DNA of 64,000 bases from Candidatus Daviesbacteria bacterium (GCA_028687915.1 JAQTZF010000001.1:101969-165968), one strand, 5' to 3'; counted from the first letter of the stretch, positions 16,710 to 40,899 are shown. Translations and numbers: made by a program. The notes: a model not told the origin generated them from the letters alone.

Positions 16710-16969
16710 CTCCTCCGGTAGGACTCGAACCTACAACCTTATCGTTACAAGAACCCTCAAGTTACCTTAAGGCTTGGACTATCTCATGATCCACTTGGGA
16801 CCTCAGGTATATAGTCTCTACACATTTAATCCAACTAGGTTGGAAATTTAGCTCGGGATTGTCCTTTCTAAAAAGGAGTTCCCCGAATTAGCCTGATTTT
16901 CCATCCCGTATTACTACGAGAGGCTGCCATCCAAAACAGCGATCTGCTCTACCATTGAGCTACAGAGGA
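16710..16969 (-). tRNA. tRNA-Asn(GUU) interrupted by a group I intron in the anticodon loop. The 5' exon lies at 16936..16969 and the 3' exon at 16710..16747 in plus-strand coordinates.
   Basis: The minus strand reads TCCTCTGTAGCTCAATGGTAGAGCAGATCGCTGT, then 188 nt, then TAACGATAAGGTTGTAGGTTCGAGTCCTACCGGAGGAG+G. The exons assemble into a 72-nt cloverleaf with a 7-bp acceptor stem, the T-loop TTCGAGT and the anticodon loop CUGUUAA, as in canonical tRNA-Asn. The ends resemble E. coli tRNA-Asn (UCCUCUGUAG...GGUUCGAGUCC...GAGGAG). CCA is not encoded. Confidence 0.8.
16748..16935 (-). ncRNA. Group I self-splicing intron, small IC3-like type similar to the Azoarcus/cyanobacterial tRNA introns. No ORF is present.
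   Basis: The exon end GCUGU can pair with the intron segment GCAGC, giving a U.G wobble at the 5' splice site. The intron ends in G. Its core contains GGGATGG...AATTCGGGGAAC, resembling the Azoarcus AAUUCGGCGAAAC segment, and GTGTAGAGACTA, which matches the conserved GUAGAGACUA P7 segment of IC3 introns. Confidence 0.7.
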
Positions 16970-17383
16970 TTATTAAAGAACACGGTAATTATACACTGAA
17001 CCTAATAATATGTGAATCCCTTTAAGAACTAAGGAATTTTTATTAACCCTGCATGGATTTCACAATGACAATTAGCACAAACAATAATTTAGGGTTGCCA
17101 AATAGCCTCAAAATAGGTTAAAATAAATTGTTAGCTGATGCTAGAACTGTCGCCTAGGCGACAAGCGCTCAACCTTCTTGAGCAAAAGACACATATCTTC
17201 CGAAGTATCGGAGGCATCGTAGCTGTAACCAAACAGTGTTGATGAGTGTCCCTAAGCATCCGATCGAAGAGTCGATTGAAATGAAGGGAATTCTTCTATA
17301 CTCTGCCTGTCAGCAGTTAGGTTTTCCCTTGTTAATAATATTACTGAATTTTTTCGTGATCTTTTTTAAGATTAAGGAGTTTT

Positions 17384-21125: not shown

Positions 21126-21213
21126 GGAGAGGTCGCATAGTGGTCTAGTGCGCCGCCTTGGAAAGGCGGTATACCGTAAGGTATCGAGGGTTCAAATCCC
21201 TCCCTCTCCGCCA
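21126..21213 (+). tRNA. tRNA-Ser(GGA).
   Basis: GGAGAGG acceptor stem, anticodon loop TTGGAAA, long variable arm, T-loop TTCAAAT, and an encoded CCA. Confidence 0.8.
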
Positions 21214-21220
21214 AAACTCT

Positions 21221-21700
21221 ATGAAGAATAAATTAAATCTCATAATTAGAAAAGCAAAAATTTCTGATCTACAAAACATTCAAGCATTAGGTACTGGGTT
21301 AATGAAATCAGATAGAAGATTTGATCCTACATTAATAGAGGAGTGGTATTTTAGTAGCGATGCTATGAAATACTTACTCAATCGTATTAGAGGCAAAAAA
21401 GGCGTTTGCCTTGTAGCAGAAGTTAATAAACAACTTGTGGGGTACCTGACTGGTAAATTACTAAAAACAGAAACATGGCGACCATTTTACAGAGCAGAGG
21501 TGAATAATTTGTATATTGAAACTAAATATCAAAGCAAAGGCATAGGAGCAGCTTTGTTAAAAGCATTTATTGAGTGGAGTAAAGCCAATAGTGCTGAGAG
21601 AATTGTTCTTAATGTTGAATCTAAGAATGTTGAAGCAATCAGGTTTTATCAGAAAAATAATTTTAACCCAGCCCGTCTGGAAATGGAAGCAAAAATATAG
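21221..21700 (+). CDS. GNAT-family N-acetyltransferase.
   Basis: The acetyl-CoA-binding motif QSKGIGAALLKAFIEW (Q/R-x-x-G-x-G/A) is present. The start is taken at MKNKLNL because the longer ORF would overlap the tRNA-Ser. Confidence 0.65.
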   Translation: MKNKLNLIIRKAKISDLQNIQALGTGLMKSDRRFDPTLIEEWYFSSDAMKYLLNRIRGKKGVCLVAEVNKQLVGYLTGKLLKTETWRPFYRAEVNNLYIETKYQSKGIGAALLKAFIEWSKANSAERIVLNVESKNVEAIRFYQKNNFNPARLEMEAKI

Positions 21701-21703
21701 TTT

Positions 21704-22258
21704 ATGAAAAAAGATTCACAAACTGAATTTGAAACTAAGGTTTTAGATCTTGATAAAGAAGAAGTTATTAAAAAGCTTAGAGAGTTAGGTGCAAAAGAGT
21801 CCCCAGAAGCTTTGTCCAGAAGATATGTTTTTGATATGGAATCAGAAGATATGGAATGGATTAGACTTAGAGAAATTGATGGCAAAGCTACTTTAGCTTA
21901 TAAATTTAAGCCTAAAGGAAATATACAGGTTGGAAAAACCCAGGAAATAGAAACGGAAGTTGCTAATTTTGAAGAAACAGCCAAAATATTACTCAAAATA
22001 CCTTTTAAACAGGTTTTATATCAGGAAAATAAAACCCACATTTTTCACCTTAATGGGATTGAATATTCAATTGATACCTGGCCCATGCTTGAACCATACC
22101 TGGAAATTGAATCAAGCAGTTTAGAAAAAGTAGCAGAAGGACTAAAACTTTTAAATTTAGAAGGTAAAGATATTGGAGATAAGGATATCAGATCAATTTA
22201 CCTGGAAAAAAATATTGATTTCCACACATTAACTGATCTTAAATTTGAGAAAAATTAG
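21704..22258 (+). CDS. CYTH-domain protein (triphosphate tunnel metalloenzyme).
   Basis: N-terminal EFETKV (the ExExK signature) and overall CYTH-like beta-strand periodicity across 184 aa. Confidence 0.55.
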   Translation: MKKDSQTEFETKVLDLDKEEVIKKLRELGAKESPEALSRRYVFDMESEDMEWIRLREIDGKATLAYKFKPKGNIQVGKTQEIETEVANFEETAKILLKIPFKQVLYQENKTHIFHLNGIEYSIDTWPMLEPYLEIESSSLEKVAEGLKLLNLEGKDIGDKDIRSIYLEKNIDFHTLTDLKFEKN

Positions 22259-22290
22259 CACCACTTGCATTAATGGTGTATGATATATAA

Positions 22291-22530
22291 ATGATGGGAA
22301 ATTATTTTTATCCAATGTATAACTCAATGTTCTACTGGATGTCTGGCTGGAATCCTTTTATCTGGCTAGCTCCTCTTGCTTTAATAGATTTAATTTTAAA
22401 GGGTTTTGCTTTATGGAAAGCAGGTAGAAATAATCACCTCTATTGGTTTATAGCTTTATTATTTATTAATTCTTTAGGTATTCTTCCGCTTATTTATCTA
22501 GTTTTCTTTGAGAAGAAGAATAAGAAGTAA
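22291..22530 (+). CDS. Small membrane protein, 79 aa.
   Basis: Two hydrophobic helices. Confidence 0.35.
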   Translation: MMGNYFYPMYNSMFYWMSGWNPFIWLAPLALIDLILKGFALWKAGRNNHLYWFIALLFINSLGILPLIYLVFFEKKNKK

Positions 22531-23094
22531 AAACTCTTTATTCCCTGCTCCCCCTAAAATTGGTGATTCCATCTCTTCTTGAATCTTAAACCCTAGTTCC
22601 TGAATCTTTTTAACTGTTTGATCTTTAATCTCTTCAGATTTTTCTAAAGATAAAACACCTTTAATTAAGTCTTGTTTTGAAGATTCATAATGAGGTTTAA
22701 GTAAGGCAATAATCATTCCATCTTCTTTTAAAAATTTCTTCACTACAGGTAAAACCAATTCTAATTTTGTCCAACCAGCATCAATGGTTATTAAATCCAC
22801 CCTTCGACTTCGCTCAGGGCCTTCGGCCTCTTCTGGCAATTCTTCTAAATGAAGAATATTAGTTCTTTCCATTACCGCTACCCTTGGGTCATTTCGAAGT
22901 TTCCAGGCAAACTCTCCGTAAGCTGTATCTACTGCATAAACTTTTGAGGCACCGTTTTGTAATAAACAATCCACAAACCCACCTGTTGATGAACCAACAT
23001 CAAGGACAACTTTACCATTCACGTCAACTTGAAATTGATCTAATGCAGCTTTTAATTTATCCCCACCGCGGGAAACAAAATTAGAGCTGCTCAT
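22498..23094 (-). CDS. tlyA: TlyA-family rRNA 2'-O-methyltransferase (FtsJ-like), apparently without the S4 domain.
   Basis: SRGGDKLKAALDQFQVDVNGKVVLDVGSSTGGFVDCLLQNGASKVYAVD, which is TlyA/FtsJ motif I, followed by the catalytic K-D-K-E context. Confidence 0.7.
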   Translation of the reverse strand: MSSSNFVSRGGDKLKAALDQFQVDVNGKVVLDVGSSTGGFVDCLLQNGASKVYAVDTAYGEFAWKLRNDPRVAVMERTNILHLEELPEEAEGPERSRRVDLITIDAGWTKLELVLPVVKKFLKEDGMIIALLKPHYESSKQDLIKGVLSLEKSEEIKDQTVKKIQELGFKIQEEMESPILGGAGNKEFLLLILLLKEN

Positions 23095-23488
23095 ACATCC
23101 CCACAGCTTTTTTAAACAAAGTCTTATCGTTTGAGAAACTTAATTTTTTCAAAGCTTCATCCGGAGTAAACCAACCTGAATCTGAAACTTCCCAATCATG
23201 ATCTTTAATATCACCTGAAACATATTTCATTAAATAGATAGTCACAATTTTGAAGATTTCTTCCCCATTTAGAGTATATTTATACTTTGATTGCCCAACA
23301 GAATTAATTATTTCTACCTCCACCCCTCCTTCTTCTTTAACTTCCCGAAGCGCTGCCTGCTTCATTCCTTCTCCTTCATTTGGATGACCTTTAGGAAACC
23401 CCCAGGATTTATTGGTTGAATGTTGAGTCAAAAGAACTTGTCCTTCTTTGTTAAATATAATTCCCCCTGCAGAAAATTCTCTCTTCAT
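23081..23488 (-). CDS. NUDIX hydrolase.
   Basis: Nudix box GHPNEGEGMKQAALREVKEEGGVEV (Gx5Ex7REUxEExGU). Confidence 0.75.
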   Translation of the reverse strand: MKREFSAGGIIFNKEGQVLLTQHSTNKSWGFPKGHPNEGEGMKQAALREVKEEGGVEVEIINSVGQSKYKYTLNGEEIFKIVTIYLMKYVSGDIKDHDWEVSDSGWFTPDEALKKLSFSNDKTLFKKAVGMYEQL

Positions 23489-23510
23489 ATTTTTTAATTA
23501 TATAGTATAG

Positions 23511-23596
23511 CGGAGGCGGTAGGATTCGAACCTACGAGGAGCTTTCGCCCCGACAGTTTTCGAAACTGTTTCCTTAAACCACTCGGACACGCCTCC
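23511..23596 (-). tRNA. tRNA-Ser(CGA).
   Basis: Reverse complement GGAGGCGTGTCCGAGTGG...ACAGTTTCGAAAACTGT...GTAGGTTCGAATCCTACCGCCTCC+G, with a long variable arm. No CCA is encoded. Confidence 0.75.
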
Positions 23597-23601
23597 CCAT
23601 G

Positions 23602-23674
23602 TGCGCCTGGAGGGGATCGAACCCCCGACTTCATCGTCCGCAACGATGCGCTCTATCCACTGAGCTACAGGCGC
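23602..23674 (-). tRNA. tRNA-Arg with anticodon GCG, an unusual Arg anticodon for bacteria.
   Basis: Reverse complement GCGCCTGTAGCTCAGTGGATAGAGCGCATCGTTGCGGACGATGAAGTCGGGGGTTCGATCCCCTCCAGGCGC+A. The anticodon loop is TTGCGGA. Confidence 0.7.
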
Positions 23675-23801
23675 AATATGTGAATTTTACAACAACTATA
23701 CGCTAGAAGCTAATATCTGGACACTTACGTTTTGGCGAAGTAAAAGGCAAGGTTCTGCGAGCACGAGGTATAATTTTCCTTACCGAAGTACAAGCAGGTC
23801 C

Positions 23802-24356
23802 TTATTTTTGGGGATTTTCTAAGGGAAAATGTTTTTGTAAGGATGAGGCCCAGGAATCCATTAAATTTTTTGGAGCAATTTCATGAAAAGGTAAATACCT
23901 GGCAACCACTTTTTTAATCTCTTCAAGTTGATCCTTTTGAATTAAAATAATAAGCTGTCCTGGAAAACGCAGATCAGTTAATACGTTTAATATTTGATAG
24001 CCTTCTTTTTCTGAAAACCAAAAACTATTTAAATCTGTCCAAAAATAGAAATGGTCTCCAATAGTGATTCCTTGTGTAGATATTTTATATTGCACATCCT
24101 CTGGAGGGACAAAAGCTAATACATAAACCATAAAAGCAAAAGCAAATAATACTCCAATAAAAATATATTCTCTGGCAAAAAAGGAGATCAATATCAGTAA
24201 AACAAAAATAATTGCTATTGTGGTAAAAAAGGATCTGTCTCTTTTTCTAAAAGGTCTGGAAGGAGCTGTCCAGGTTAAATAAGTTCTCACGGGATCATCA
24301 TCTAAGTCCCTGATATCATTATTCTTTTCTGAAGGTTTGTGGTAAAACTCGGGCAT
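23802..24356 (-). CDS. Membrane protein, 184 aa with two central TM helices.
   Basis: Hydrophobicity only. Confidence 0.4.
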   Translation of the reverse strand: MPEFYHKPSEKNNDIRDLDDDPVRTYLTWTAPSRPFRKRDRSFFTTIAIIFVLLILISFFAREYIFIGVLFAFAFMVYVLAFVPPEDVQYKISTQGITIGDHFYFWTDLNSFWFSEKEGYQILNVLTDLRFPGQLIILIQKDQLEEIKKVVARYLPFHEIAPKNLMDSWASSLQKHFPLENPQK

Positions 24357-24416
24357 TAAAAATTATTATACAACAGACATGGATTATATATGCTATGTTT
24401 GTTACAATTAGCCACA

Positions 24417-24481
24417 AGGAGAGGTCGCATAAGACATTCCGCCTACGGCAGAAGATCTTGAGCTACTCTCCTCGTAAACTC
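24417..24481 (+). repeat. Orphan partial copy of the tRNA-Ser 5' end (AAGGAGAGGTCGCATAAG) upstream of tRNA-Ser(GCU).
   Basis: Matches the first 14-16 nt of all three plus-strand tRNA-Ser genes. The segment ends ...CTACTCTCC, which could pair with the 5' GGAGAG. Confidence 0.5.
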
Positions 24482-24568
24482 GGAGAGGTCGCATAGTGGC
24501 CTAGTGCGAATCGGTGCTAACGATTTGTCGTCGTAAGACGACCGAGGGTTCGAATCCCTCCCTCTCCG
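24482..24568 (+). tRNA. tRNA-Ser(GCU).
   Basis: GGAGAGGTCGCATAGTGGCCTAGTGCG AATCG GTGCTAA CGATT, a long variable arm, GAGGGTTCGAATCCCTC, then CCTCTCC+G. Confidence 0.75.
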
Positions 24569-24645
24569 CCTTCGATCGCCATAGCGATCTTCGGCGGACA
24601 CAGTCCGCTTGTTGTCGCAAAGGAGATTTAAGATAATTTATATAA

Positions 24646-24733
<88 letters not shown>

Positions 24734-25780: not shown

Positions 25781-25810
25781 CAAAAATCCACCCTTAGGTG
25801 GATTTTTTTG
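25781..25810. terminator. Bidirectional rho-independent terminator hairpin immediately 3' of the tmRNA.
   Basis: AAAAATCCACCCTTAGGTGGATTTTTTT, a perfect 7-bp stem flanked by an A-run and a T-run. Confidence 0.6.
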
Positions 25811-26196
25811 TGGAGACGAGGGTATTGAACCCTGTCTGAATCGTTAATTTAATAACATCTACAAGCTTAGCTAATATATTTTTAAGTACTGGTTGTAACC
25901 TATTAGCAGGAAAACCAATACTTGATTGAGTCATCTTAAACAATTATGGATCAACCAACACCACAATAATAGCAACCTGACTGTTGTACTTATCTTAAGG
26001 ATTCCGTCAGATGGAGATTACCTTAAAATACCCTTATGCGGCTAGAGTGTAACCTGGTTGCCCAAGTACACCAAGCGTAAACACTTGGGATGCTAATTTT
26101 TCTTTAGCATATTTTTTGAAACCATGTTTTACGAATAAGGTTTCCTGTTCGGCTTGCAGTTTTTAAAGTGCCGGTCCGTCGAATCTGTACGTCCCC
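25811..26196 (-). ncRNA. ssrA: tmRNA (ssrA).
   Basis: Minus strand begins GGGGACGTACAGATTCGACGG and ends GACAGGGTTCAATACCCTCGTCTCC+A, a tRNA-like acceptor/T-arm with acceptor pairing GGGGACG/CGTCTCC. The internal tag ORF ends ...GGT TAC ACT CTA GCC GCA TAA (…GYTLAA*). It sits adjacent to smpB. Confidence 0.8.
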
Positions 26197-37320: not shown

Positions 37321-39555
37321 TTAACCTTTTAATCCTTCTTCTAATGCCTTTTTTAAAGTTCCTGTTATAAACTCCCATATAAAGGATCCTGCAAACTTAA
37401 GATCTTTTCTGTGCTCAATCTTATTATTAACCATAATATCCACCACTCTTTGTACCTTTTTTGCTGTAAGATCATCAACAGCTACTTTAAAGTCCCCTGA
37501 TCCAGGAACAAGCTCTGGCCTCCCGGCTCTTATTTCTCTTTCTGCCTGTTCTGCGGCTCGCTGTTTTATCTTTAACTTCTCTTTACCAGAGAGTTTAATA
37601 TCAAAATAATCTGCCAGTACCATTTCTTTTTCCTGCATCTGAATAAATTGCGGAGCATTAGGATCAGTTAAACCAGTCAGTTTATTAACCCCTGCTAAGA
37701 TTTCATCTTCAGATAATCTTTGTTTGCCTGTCGATTCTATTTTCTGTCTAGCATATTTAATAAAGTTCATTAGTAAATGCTTTTTTGTTTCCCAAGATTC
37801 TGCTTTTGAATATTCAAAAGCATTTAAGAGTTTGCCCAATGTATCAAAATTTGGATTTAACAAAAAAGATTCAGCTGAACCGCAGAGTGCTTTTCTACCT
37901 TCCTCTGGTCCATCAACAAACCTTGAGGCCCAAAGACTCATAACTTGCGCCCCCATTGGAATAAAACTGAAATCATTACTCGAAACCACACCTTTTTCTA
38001 CTTTTCTCCTCAAAAGTCTGAAGTTAAGATGGCCCACTCTTTCACCACGATTGTTATCGTTAATCCTTAGGGCTTCATCGCTTTGTTCCTTGGGTCCACG
38101 ATCTTGATATAAGAACCTGCCCTTCTCGTCAATATAATCAGGCGTTGCATCAATTCCTGTTCTTTCTTTAAAAGACGAGTATTCTTTATAAGACAAAAAA
38201 TCAGCTGGAGCGTTTAATCTGACAGTTCTTGTCCAAAAATCACCCCCATAAATATCTACCCCCTCAAGAAGTTCAATTTGGCTTCTCAAAAGTCCGGCTT
38301 CAGCTCTAAGAAATTCCCTAAAACGCATAATTTTTGACATTGGGTAGTCACAACCATCTCTTCCTCCTGCCCAAGTCGGTTTTTCAGGACCATCATAATC
38401 AATCCCAACGGTTTTTTCATTAATTTTCCCCCTATTTACTATCAAATAGTCATACATGATTCCCCTACCAGTAAAGCGGAACATTCTTTCAGCCATGTTT
38501 GAAGCCCATTCATACTCATTTGCTTTATAACGGCTATCTACCAGCTCATCGTAATCTTCATGTCCTTTACTCTTTAAAAACTCCCGAAATACTTTGTCTT
38601 GTTCTTTCTCTGCATCCTCCTGATATTTTGAGAATTTTTGGGTTTCAGAAAGATTTTCAAACTTATCTTCCCTAGAACGATCTTCAGCTTTCTGTTTGTT
38701 TAAATAATCCTCATAATTTCCTACTACTACTGGTATTTCTGCAGGATCTATTTTTAGCTCTAAACAAGCCCTTTGAAGAGCCAAAAACTGTTGAACCTTC
38801 TTACCAAAACCACCTCTTCCTGCTTCTGAATTAGCCCTGGCGAACTCATGACCATGATCTTCATAGTATTGAAGAGCCTCAATAAAAGGATTAAATGTTT
38901 GAGGGGCCTCTCCTTCACCTCTCGCAACCTCTTCTTGCAGCGCGAATAAAACGTCGTACCAGTCCGGCGCTAAACTTAGAGCAGCTCCAGAAACATCTTT
39001 AATGCTTCCTTTATTCTCGTAAGCATTAAAGGCAGAATGAAAAGAAAGCCTGGCTTTAATTTCATTACGCATCCGGTGAGCCCAATCTTTTTGATCTTTA
39101 AACTGTTCGTCAGACAATTGTTCACCTGTAATTGGATCCTTATGTTTTATCTCTAAAGTTTCTAAGATTGCTTGTGCATTTTGAAGATCAATTTGTGTCT
39201 GTTGGGTTAAATCACTCTTGGAAATTTCTACTAATGCCAAAGTGTCTTTAATGTGTTTCTCTGCTTCTTCTCTTTTTTTTGGCCAAACAACTTCAATTGG
39301 ATATTGTTGAGGACCCATAATTTCAATCGCTGTCCAGCCCGGTGGTATATCCTGTCCTTGACGGGTAGTTTTCCGTCCTTCTATTTCTTCTCCCGCGTCT
39401 TCTCCTAATGCGGCATTAATTGCAGCAGCCGCTTCCGGACCATGTATTCTGGCTATTCTTGCTTTTTGCGCTTCAGTAAGAAGCTCTTTTTGATTTTCTC
39501 CACTGGCACCTGTTTCTGTTCCACCTGGTTCTGGCATATGTTTTTCTCTTTCCAT
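37321..39555 (-). CDS. Hypothetical large soluble protein, 744 aa, acidic, with no recognisable domain.
   Basis: Long ORF oriented against the surrounding T4SS genes. No TM helix and no motif identified. Confidence 0.5.
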   Translation of the reverse strand: MEREKHMPEPGGTETGASGENQKELLTEAQKARIARIHGPEAAAAINAALGEDAGEEIEGRKTTRQGQDIPPGWTAIEIMGPQQYPIEVVWPKKREEAEKHIKDTLALVEISKSDLTQQTQIDLQNAQAILETLEIKHKDPITGEQLSDEQFKDQKDWAHRMRNEIKARLSFHSAFNAYENKGSIKDVSGAALSLAPDWYDVLFALQEEVARGEGEAPQTFNPFIEALQYYEDHGHEFARANSEAGRGGFGKKVQQFLALQRACLELKIDPAEIPVVVGNYEDYLNKQKAEDRSREDKFENLSETQKFSKYQEDAEKEQDKVFREFLKSKGHEDYDELVDSRYKANEYEWASNMAERMFRFTGRGIMYDYLIVNRGKINEKTVGIDYDGPEKPTWAGGRDGCDYPMSKIMRFREFLRAEAGLLRSQIELLEGVDIYGGDFWTRTVRLNAPADFLSYKEYSSFKERTGIDATPDYIDEKGRFLYQDRGPKEQSDEALRINDNNRGERVGHLNFRLLRRKVEKGVVSSNDFSFIPMGAQVMSLWASRFVDGPEEGRKALCGSAESFLLNPNFDTLGKLLNAFEYSKAESWETKKHLLMNFIKYARQKIESTGKQRLSEDEILAGVNKLTGLTDPNAPQFIQMQEKEMVLADYFDIKLSGKEKLKIKQRAAEQAEREIRAGRPELVPGSGDFKVAVDDLTAKKVQRVVDIMVNNKIEHRKDLKFAGSFIWEFITGTLKKALEEGLKG

Positions 39556-39672: not shown

Positions 39673-40899
39673 TTAATCACACTTCTCTGCAGCATCTTCT
39701 TTTTTAAGGCCACAATGCGGACATACTTCAATACCCTTGCCAGATGGAATATCTCCCTCACATCTGGGACATTTGAAAAAAGCTTCCTGAGCACCTGACC
39801 AGGTTGACATTTCTCCTCCAATTTTATTGCCTGAGAATCCACAGCTCCCACGAAGTCTTGGTGCCCCCATTGCAATTAAGCGCCTCTTCCTTTCTTCATA
39901 TGCTTCATCACCTACAGTTAATTCATTTGACTCAGTTATTTCTCCCCTAAGCAGAGCCAAAGCATAATTATCATGGGCAATCTTATTTCTTTCTGCTTCT
40001 TTAATATCCTGATTCTCTAAAGCATTTAAAACATCCCTTCTAAGGGGCTGTAGCTTATCTAAAAGCCAATGGCAACTATCTTGTTGTCTATTACTATGAT
40101 TTGGATCTAAGGCCTTTATTACGTCCATGTGAGAGTTAAACCTTTCCCCTCCTTTAAGCCAGACAGGTGTTTTTAACAAATCTACATCTGAAGAACTTTC
40201 GCTTAATTGATTTTCTATACTTAAAAACTGATTTAAAAAGTTTGTTGCTTCACTGGTAGTTAGGTGATTTCGGTATGCAATTGCATCTACCCTATCTTCT
40301 AACACCTGAAAAACAAAAGTAAAGTTGTGATCTTTAAACCCATCTTCTTTTTTTCCGGGTTCTGAATGCCAAACAGCAAAATCTCCTTTATCTATTACTC
40401 CAGCAAACAGGGGTTGCTCAATCTTTTCTTTAAAACCAATACACTCTGCTCTTGCTCTTATGCCTTGTCCTTTTTTAAAGCTTTCTAAGATATCTCCATC
40501 TTGTTCATACCCAATGGAGTAAATCTGATTTGGCAAACCATTTTCACCCCTTTTTAATCCATAACTATAGCGGGTGATATTTTCTTCAACAATGTATTCA
40601 CGGGTAAAATACTTGAGGTTTTCATCTACTCTGGTACGCCATGAGGCAATATTAGAACAATTTCGACGGGCGTAAATTTCGTCTTGAAGATTGAATGCTT
40701 GTTGTGTTTCTGTAGCCATATTTTTCCTGCTCGGGATCAAACTACGGTTATGGTTCCTGGCTTCCACAAGCAGTTCACATGCTTGTGGTTTACAGTTGCG
40801 GCACAGCTCTTGAATTTCACAAGATTCCCATTGTCGCCTACGGCGACCCGCCCCTATAAAATACATAAGTATGTTGTTTTTGTCAATTCCTATCAGCAA
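39673..40899 (-). CDS. Hypothetical protein with a C-terminal zinc-ribbon (CPRC...CPHC).
   Basis: 408-aa ORF co-oriented with and upstream of the 744-aa gene. The C-terminus reads FKCPRCEGDIPSGKGIEVCPHCGLKK. The true start may be the internal MATETQQAF. Confidence 0.4.
   Translation of the reverse strand: MLIGIDKNNILMYFIGAGRRRRQWESCEIQELCRNCKPQACELLVEARNHNRSLIPSRKNMATETQQAFNLQDEIYARRNCSNIASWRTRVDENLKYFTREYIVEENITRYSYGLKRGENGLPNQIYSIGYEQDGDILESFKKGQGIRARAECIGFKEKIEQPLFAGVIDKGDFAVWHSEPGKKEDGFKDHNFTFVFQVLEDRVDAIAYRNHLTTSEATNFLNQFLSIENQLSESSSDVDLLKTPVWLKGGERFNSHMDVIKALDPNHSNRQQDSCHWLLDKLQPLRRDVLNALENQDIKEAERNKIAHDNYALALLRGEITESNELTVGDEAYEERKRRLIAMGAPRLRGSCGFSGNKIGGEMSTWSGAQEAFFKCPRCEGDIPSGKGIEVCPHCGLKKEDAAEKCD

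Follow-up and report, generated by a model that had tools for sequence, protein, structure and literature searches.

The minus strand of the window (the whole 64-kb stretch of DNA analysed, from whose first letter all positions are counted) carries at 16710-16969 a tRNA-Asn(GUU) gene whose anticodon loop is split by a group I intron of 188 nt. The genes dnaG and rpoD lie upstream on the same strand; the other neighbours are a small DPBB-like ORF on the opposite strand and, downstream, a flavodoxin/FMN-reductase-like ORF. The features of the locus are as follows.

21004-19121, minus strand: dnaG, upstream of the tRNA-Asn gene.
19062-17968, minus strand: rpoD, upstream of the tRNA-Asn gene.
16988-17016, minus strand: candidate sigma-70-type promoter, TTCACA-17-TATAAT, an 11/12 consensus match.
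16936-16969, minus strand: 5' exon of tRNA-Asn(GUU), tRNA positions 1-35, ending in C32 U33 G34 U35.
16748-16935, minus strand: group I intron, 188 nt, with omega-G at 16748.
16710-16747, minus strand: 3' exon, from U36 A37 A38 to the 3' strand of the acceptor stem, with discriminator G73 at 16710.

The 5' exon (16969-16936) reads TCCTCTGTAGCTCAATGGTAGAGCAGATCGCTGT and the 3' exon (16747-16710) TAACGATAAGGTTGTAGGTTCGAGTCCTACCGGAGGAG; the intron begins with TTTGGATGGCAGC and ends with GGTTCTTG. CCA is not encoded at the 3' end of the gene. The candidate promoter ends 19 nt 5' of the tRNA, and such matches are no commoner in the region than expected from shuffled sequence.

The intron was recognized by the Rfam model RF00028, which matched 16945-16755 on the minus strand over its whole length (model positions 1-253 of 253) and scored 64.1 bits, where the gathering score is 50, with an E-value of 5.9e-14. 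The intron mode of ARAGORN (option -i), run on the excerpt and on the whole window, reported tRNA-Asn(gtt) with i(35,188) at c[16709,16969] and the junction gctgt-intron-taacg, and supplied the boundaries given above. Both kinds of search had been proposed in an earlier note on this DNA, which described the locus as a tRNA-Asn(GUU) gene interrupted by an ORF-less group I intron of about 188 nt, and both bear that description out. No ORF of more than 25 aa in the ORF list overlaps the locus, and a homing-endonuclease ORF is likewise absent. The two exons assemble, as the earlier note had it, into a canonical tRNA-Asn of 72 nt with a standard cloverleaf, the anticodon loop CUGUUAA and discriminator G; its sole irregularity is a G27.A43 mismatch. 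Intron-aware ARAGORN found no other tRNA-Asn gene within the 64 kb, so that the gene is indeed the only one of its kind in the window. ARAGORN in default mode called no tRNA at the locus. Because default tRNA finders miss the gene, the genome would seem to lack tRNA-Asn altogether. For the features of the split tRNA and its group I intron, chance is ruled out by a wide margin.

The insertion point had been placed between positions 35 and 36, and no other boundary combines a 7-nt anticodon loop with U at position -1 and G at the omega position. Intron-aware ARAGORN and the match to intron-less tRNA-Asn agree with it. If both boundaries are moved by two bases, the gene would instead be a tRNA-Thr(UGU) interrupted at 33/34. 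The shifted splice product also passes ARAGORN as tRNA-Thr(tgt), and many homologous loci are named Thr(tgt) i(33) by the same program, as ARAGORN and tFind often do; this systematic miscall was described before (PMC13011429). An intron so bounded, however, would end in U (16750) and not in G, and the splice site would no longer have the U.G wobble with which P1 ends; the 33/34 boundary was rejected on these two grounds. Homologues sequenced after in vitro splicing, moreover, were excised at 35/36 (PMC13011429), and the exons fit intron-less tRNA-Asn genes in the same syntenic slot as well as the annotated tRNA-Asn of E. coli, which leaves a threonine identity extremely improbable.

The intron-less genes came from a scan of metagenomes with RpoD. 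Most of its returns were from distant phyla, and its use lay in the intron-less tRNA-Asn found at the rpoD slot. In 12 loci (L123, L125-L127, L131, L151, L160, L171, L176, L181, L184, and L190) rpoD is followed on the same strand by an intron-less tRNA-Asn(GUU). The spliced 72-nt tRNA is identical at 65 of 72 positions to the tRNA of metagenome locus L123 and at 49-61 of 72 to the 11 others. In a collection of E. coli genomes the spliced tRNA matched only annotated tRNA-Asn genes, with the alignment continuous over the junction. The linkage of rpoD and tRNA-Asn is thus kept without the intron on diverse contigs, which makes this an orthologous locus polymorphic for the presence of the intron.

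Homologues were collected with a 20-mer from P7, taking one genome per species, which yielded at least 119 loci, nearly all inside split tRNA genes. The window precursor and 65 full-length homologues were combined into an alignment of 66 precursors. The secondary structure was derived by hand and with the Rfam alignment; with intron positions numbered 1-188, its elements are listed here from 5' to 3'.

16923-16939, minus strand: P1, exon C32-U35 and intron nt 1 paired with the guide GGCAG (intron 8-12); 100% paired in the 66 sequences.
16904-16921, minus strand: P2 hairpin, intron 15-32, 7 bp, GUAA (GNRA) tetraloop L2; 7 of 7 pairs change on both sides.
16892-16896, minus strand: P3 5' strand, UCAGG, intron 40-44, partner 16803-16807; 99.7% paired, compensatory changes in 3 of 5 pairs.
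16822-16886, minus strand: P4-P5-P6/P6a domain with A-rich J4/5 (AAC) and J5/4 (CAA), from covariation in the 66 precursors and the Rfam alignment; P4 (intron 50-55 with 78-83) nearly invariant, P5 (59-63 with 70-74) covarying, P6 (84-85 with 113-114) nearly invariant, P6a (92-96 with 102-106) covarying.
16811-16818, minus strand: P7 5' strand, G-A(bulge)-GACUAU, intron 118 and 120-125 with A119 bulged, partner 16776-16782.
16803-16807, minus strand: P3 3' strand, CCUGA, intron 129-133.
16788-16802, minus strand: P8 hairpin, intron 134-138 with 144-148, 5 bp, 5-nt loop; 5 of 5 pairs change on both sides.
16776-16782, minus strand: P7 3' strand, AUAGUCC, intron 154-160, with J8/7 (AUGAG) just before it.
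16755-16772, minus strand: P9 hairpin, intron 164-170 with 175-181, 7 bp, GUAA (GNRA) loop L9; 6 of 7 pairs change on both sides.

At the 5' splice site the exon end GCUGU lies opposite GCAGC of the intron, with a U35.G9 wobble, exactly the pairing that had been proposed from the sequence. The four exon pairs of P1 are invariant in the alignment, and the innermost pair, between intron nt 1 and nt 8, covaries without a single unpaired cell (CG in 45 sequences, GC in 7, UG in 7, AU in 6, and UA in 1). In the window copy, intron C13 additionally pairs with exon G31. L2 follows G[ACGU][AG]A in almost every homologue of the alignment. P7, which binds guanosine, makes a pseudoknot across P3 and is 100% paired yet invariant; the search pattern prescribed its 5' strand and left its 3' strand free. 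The J8/7-P7' string AGAUAGUCC is invariant across the 66 precursors as well. A single hairpin lies between P3' and P7', with P7.1/P7.2 absent between P3' and P8, and the 188-nt intron has no space for P7.1/P7.2, P5abc or P9 extensions. A tail of 7 nt follows P9 and ends in omega-G188, the terminal G already pointed out in the earlier note; the final two intron bases (T221 and G222 of the alignment) are invariant in 66/66. No convincing P10 pairing was found for the window intron. A 3-base P10 between UAA of the 3' exon and UUG of the intron can be drawn by eye and is not claimed, because L1 varies too much among the aligned sequences. In a consensus scan, the P9 hairpin with its U-rich tail (16755-16772, minus strand) scored as resembling an intrinsic terminator, a signal graded as incidental; it could lead to a terminator being annotated falsely or might, conceivably, act as an attenuator when the precursor is transcribed.

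The model of P1-P9 and the cloverleaf is strongly supported by the alignment, in which 95.2% of the cells are paired; moving the 3' partners along by 1-3 columns lowers this share to 36.6-48.0%. Both sides change in 50 of the 75 modelled pairs, and 918 cells are changed on both sides, compared with about 259 in shuffled alignments; none of 500 shuffles equalled the observed value on any of five measures. Compensatory changes were seen in P2, P3, P5, P6a, P8, and P9 and in all four tRNA stems, including the acceptor, D, and anticodon stems of the 5' exon. P4, P6, and P7 are paired but unvarying, and therefore provide no covariation evidence for or against the model. Folded without guidance, the 260-nt precursor reached -86 kcal/mol (z = -3.4 versus shuffles), and the MFE/centroid fold recovered the acceptor stem, the D and T arms, P1, P2, P4, P5, P8, and P9.

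None of the listed homologues is identical to the window sequence, the best among the matches listed being L086 with 79%. The window copy is intact. Across the 123 alignment columns with a conservation of 90% or more in the 65 homologues, its bases never deviate, and all its modelled pairs are standard except 27:43, which is also mismatched in 57 of 66 homologues. Nothing suggests decay of the intron. The split gene could be thought of as a pseudogene, a decayed relic in a cell served by an intron-less tRNA-Asn elsewhere, given that the view of the genome extends over 64 kb and a second tRNA-Asn could sit outside it. The intact columns and pairs speak against this, as does the position of the gene in the conserved rpoD-linked tRNA-Asn slot, and such a relic is accordingly judged very improbable. 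The split locus is very probably functional.

Group I introns splice by an established series of steps, which we infer to apply to the window intron as well. Transcription would give a precursor of about 260 nt. In it, P1 would form by pairing of the guide GGCAG with C32-U33-G34-U35 and intron nt 1, so that the 5' splice site comes to lie at the U35.G wobble. Folding of the P3-P9 core, with the P3/P7 pseudoknot and the P4-P6 domain, would follow. In the Azoarcus ribozyme, GNRA loops on P2 and P9 are docked in receptors; in the window intron the tetraloops of P2 and P9 would probably dock in helical receptors in a similar manner, clamping the two domains together. Free guanosine bound in P7 would attack and cleave the chain after U35, after which G188 (omega-G, 16748) would occupy the guanosine site and the 3'-OH of U35 would attack the 3' splice site, so that U35 becomes linked to U36. 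In the meantime the two exons would be kept together by the anticodon stem, and the product would be the canonical 72-nt tRNA-Asn with the loop CUGUUAA, to which CCA would be added later. A requirement for the anticodon stem in holding the exons was described for the Anabaena pre-tRNA intron (Zaug et al. 1993).

What the analysis shows for the window copy is its anatomy, a structure supported by covariation, its intactness, its orthology to tRNA-Asn genes lacking an intron, and its homology to a ribozyme of proven activity; that it splices, and its tertiary contacts, are what we infer. The tRNA-Asp intron of GCA_001029755.1 was demonstrated to self-splice precisely at 35/36 in vitro with GTP and 5 mM Mg2+, and changing its omega-G to C blocked exon ligation (Nakagawa et al., PMC13011429). 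The same in vitro demonstration was obtained with the tRNA-Asn intron of GCA_016700035.1 (PMC13011429). An intron that is functional but depends in vivo on a host protein, such as a chaperone or a maturase-like factor, might be expected from its minimal form, in which a single hairpin stands between P3' and P7', P7.1/P7.2 of the longer relatives are missing, and the 188 nt are close to the lower limit of the published lengths (184-894 nt). A relative of 196 nt with the same minimal layout, however, self-splices free of protein in 5 mM Mg2+ (PMC13011429), the intron contains no ORF, and no maturase-like gene adjoining the split tRNA-Asn was found among the neighbouring genes; protein dependence is consequently considered quite improbable. 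With high confidence, the gene can be regarded as the tRNA-Asn(GUU) of the organism, and the compact intron that splits it between U35 and U36 as a self-splicing group I intron without an ORF.

The earlier note held such an intron in tRNA-Asn at 35/36 to be unusual, a view that did not stand. The intron-bearing tRNA types of bacteria were extended from the four classical ones to 21 by Williams (2020, bioRxiv 10.1101/2020.01.27.920355), whose class 'Asn.4Ug' is cited by PMC13011429. In 95 complete genomes of Patescibacteria, 15 tRNA-Asn and 3 tRNA-Asp genes with group I introns at 35/36 were reported (Nakagawa et al., mSystems 2026, PMC13011429). The tRNA introns of this phylum are mostly devoid of an endonuclease gene and are missed or mislabelled by standard tools (PMC13011429). 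The window locus is thus a further instance of an already described class, with the same host tRNA, position, and phylum and with in vitro splicing on record, and introns of this kind are common in public genomes (at least 60 other species).

The closest published relatives of the window intron are those in the tRNA-Asp(GUC) genes of two Microgenomatia, GCA_001029755.1 (196 nt) and GCA_030583725.1 (184 nt). These belong to the same class and share the 35/36 site, the exon target CUGU, a compact P1-P9 layout without P7.1/P7.2, and GNRA loops at L2 and L9. The window intron is identical to them at 73-74% of its 188 nt (73% for GCA_001029755.1), including the long blocks AGGCTAATTCGGGGAA, AATCCCGAGCTAAAT, and TAAATGTGTAGAGACTATATACCT; they differ in their host, Asp in place of Asn, and by compensatory changes in P2, P5, P6a, P8, and P9. 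The published tRNA-Asn(GUU) introns agree with that of the window in host tRNA, position, phylum, the U-1/omega-G rule, and the J8/7-P7' motif AUGAGAUAGUCCA, with 61-68% of bases identical, but the 15 of them measure 205-312 nt, or about 570 nt when they contain an HNH endonuclease gene. In many of them P3' and P8 are separated by an additional element, and P7.1 was drawn for the tested Saccharimonadia intron (PMC13011429).

The classical IC3 introns are those of Azoarcus tRNA-Ile(CAU), Anabaena/Nostoc tRNA-Leu(UAA), tRNA-fMet, and tRNA-Arg(CCU). Like them, the window intron is small and ORF-less, lies in a tRNA anticodon loop, and, judged by homology, probably splices by itself; it also shares the core motifs AAUUCGGGGAA (J3/4-P4) and GUGUAGAGACUA (J6/7-P7). 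The classical introns differ in being inserted at 33/34, 34/35 or 36/37, and the window intron is about 60% identical to that of Nostoc tRNA-Leu. The earlier note had pointed to the motifs AATTCGGGGAAC and GTGTAGAGACTA, both of which do occur in the window intron, and had called the intron IC3-like, which holds in part. In a segment-wise comparison, the P3-P6 segment scored best against two IC3-labelled introns, and AATTCGGGGAA and GTGTAGAGACTA are common to the window intron and IC3-labelled introns of Table S5, with similar motifs in IA-labelled ones too. The 3' part is IA-like, since the J8/7-P7'-P9-tail segment gave a mean local score of 27.4 against IA-labelled 35/36 introns versus 16.9 against IC3-labelled ones. 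The IC3 3' signature, AGUCCAGACCACAAAC after P7' and the ending GGUAAG, is empirical, being drawn from labelled examples, and differs from the formal subgroup definition; both of its parts are absent from the window intron, whereas among the 8 IC3-labelled introns compared each was present in 6. Identity over the whole intron does not separate the subgroups (0.60-0.67 for IA- and IC3-labelled introns alike). In the published survey with subgroup covariance models, 25 of 28 introns at 35/36 were assigned to IA and none of the tRNA introns of Patescibacteria to IC (PMC13011429). A minimal core that lacks P7.1/P7.2, elements typical of IA, is the description that fits the layout best.

The scan with the P7 20-mer, together with the alignment, placed the compact intron also in tRNA-Asn of at least 60 other species and in tRNA-Asp of at least 5, and CTGT|...G|TAA is present at 60 homologous loci of the alignment. 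In intron mode, ARAGORN shifted the boundaries of most of the homologous split tRNA-Asn (L003-L119) and named them Thr, Asp, Tyr, His, Val, Ala or Phe. The window intron may belong to a compact sublineage of about 174-212 nt whose members in the published survey are found only in tRNA-Asp; the same ribozyme in tRNA-Asn of at least 61 and tRNA-Asp of at least 5 genomes would then suggest movement between tRNA genes with C32-U33-G34-U35, for example by reverse splicing with the GCAG guide, a proposal put forward tentatively and with more doubt than belief. The target C32-U33-G34-U35 is common to tRNA-Asn and tRNA-Asp, and could thus offer one ribozyme a simple route into both. If the proposal is true, few natural self-splicing group I ribozymes would be smaller than the compact introns. 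Two precursors, L065:4043-4288 and L090:2-247, measure just 246 nt, leaving introns of about 174 nt, under the published minimum of 184 nt.

The P7 20-mer was also found in longer introns of about 375-765 nt (L006, L011, L052, L060, L072, L079, L082, L088, L093, L104, and L111). Among the matches listed, these loci come from 10 Bacteroidales/Paludibacteraceae gut MAGs and 1 Clostridium MAG (L104). ARAGORN labels their host genes tRNA-Gln(UUG) or tRNA-Phe(GAA), which is doubtful given its miscalls elsewhere, and the longer introns may have endonuclease genes inside.

The main practical value of the locus lies in annotation, as missed or mislabelled split tRNA-Asn genes affect estimates of tRNA complement and completeness for CPR genomes. 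Biologically, the locus adds to the published cases in which an essential, single-copy tRNA gene of a highly reduced genome has kept a self-splicing intron. Ribozyme engineers may find a minimal scaffold from nature in the compact lineage (about 174-212 nt), which could also inform studies of how group I introns switch among tRNA hosts. To specialists, the points on annotation and on the compact lineage are unsurprising since the reports of 2020 and 2026.

The host appears to belong to the Patescibacteria (CPR), class Microgenomatia, near Ca. Daviesbacteria, as judged from synteny with and identity to named MAGs rather than from a marker-gene phylogeny. The order dnaG-rpoD-tRNA(intron) recurs in L077, a Candidatus Daviesbacteria MAG whose RpoD and DnaG are 83% and 59% identical, respectively, and also in L039, L089, and L091. 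Among the matches listed, most carriers of the homologous intron, the closest homologues included, come from Microgenomates-group MAGs (Gottesman-, Woese-, Roizman-, Davies-, Ames-, Levyi-, and Curtissbacteria). A gene neighbouring the split tRNA was found on one Logan contig, SRR22315507.

Dozens of GTDB MAG records among L002-L120 (for example L039, L086, and L094) are titled 'uncultured Gammaproteobacteria/Pseudomonadales bacterium' (binchicken / SRP..._co) and carry the Microgenomatia-type intron. One of these, L039, has the dnaG-rpoD-tRNA-Asn synteny with an RpoD 82.6% identical to that of the window, and the record titles look like placeholder or wrong taxonomy.

Other RNA features of the window were noted in passing. 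Rfam identified a tmRNA at 25808-26196 (minus strand; 90.5 bits, E-value of 7.7e-34) that was missed by both ARAGORN runs and whose 3' end is CUCCACAA instead of the usual CCACCA. A cobalamin riboswitch (RF00174, 37.1 bits) was found at 40733-40863 (minus strand), at the 5' end of an ORF of 408 aa (39673-40899, minus strand) that is followed by one of 744 aa (37321-39555, minus strand). Neither ORF had a Pfam match, and the riboswitch predicts that both are B12-regulated genes in a reduced genome. Finally, four tRNA-Ser genes (GGA, CGA, GCU, and UGA) and a tRNA-Arg(GCG) gene are clustered within 3.6 kb at 21126-24733.
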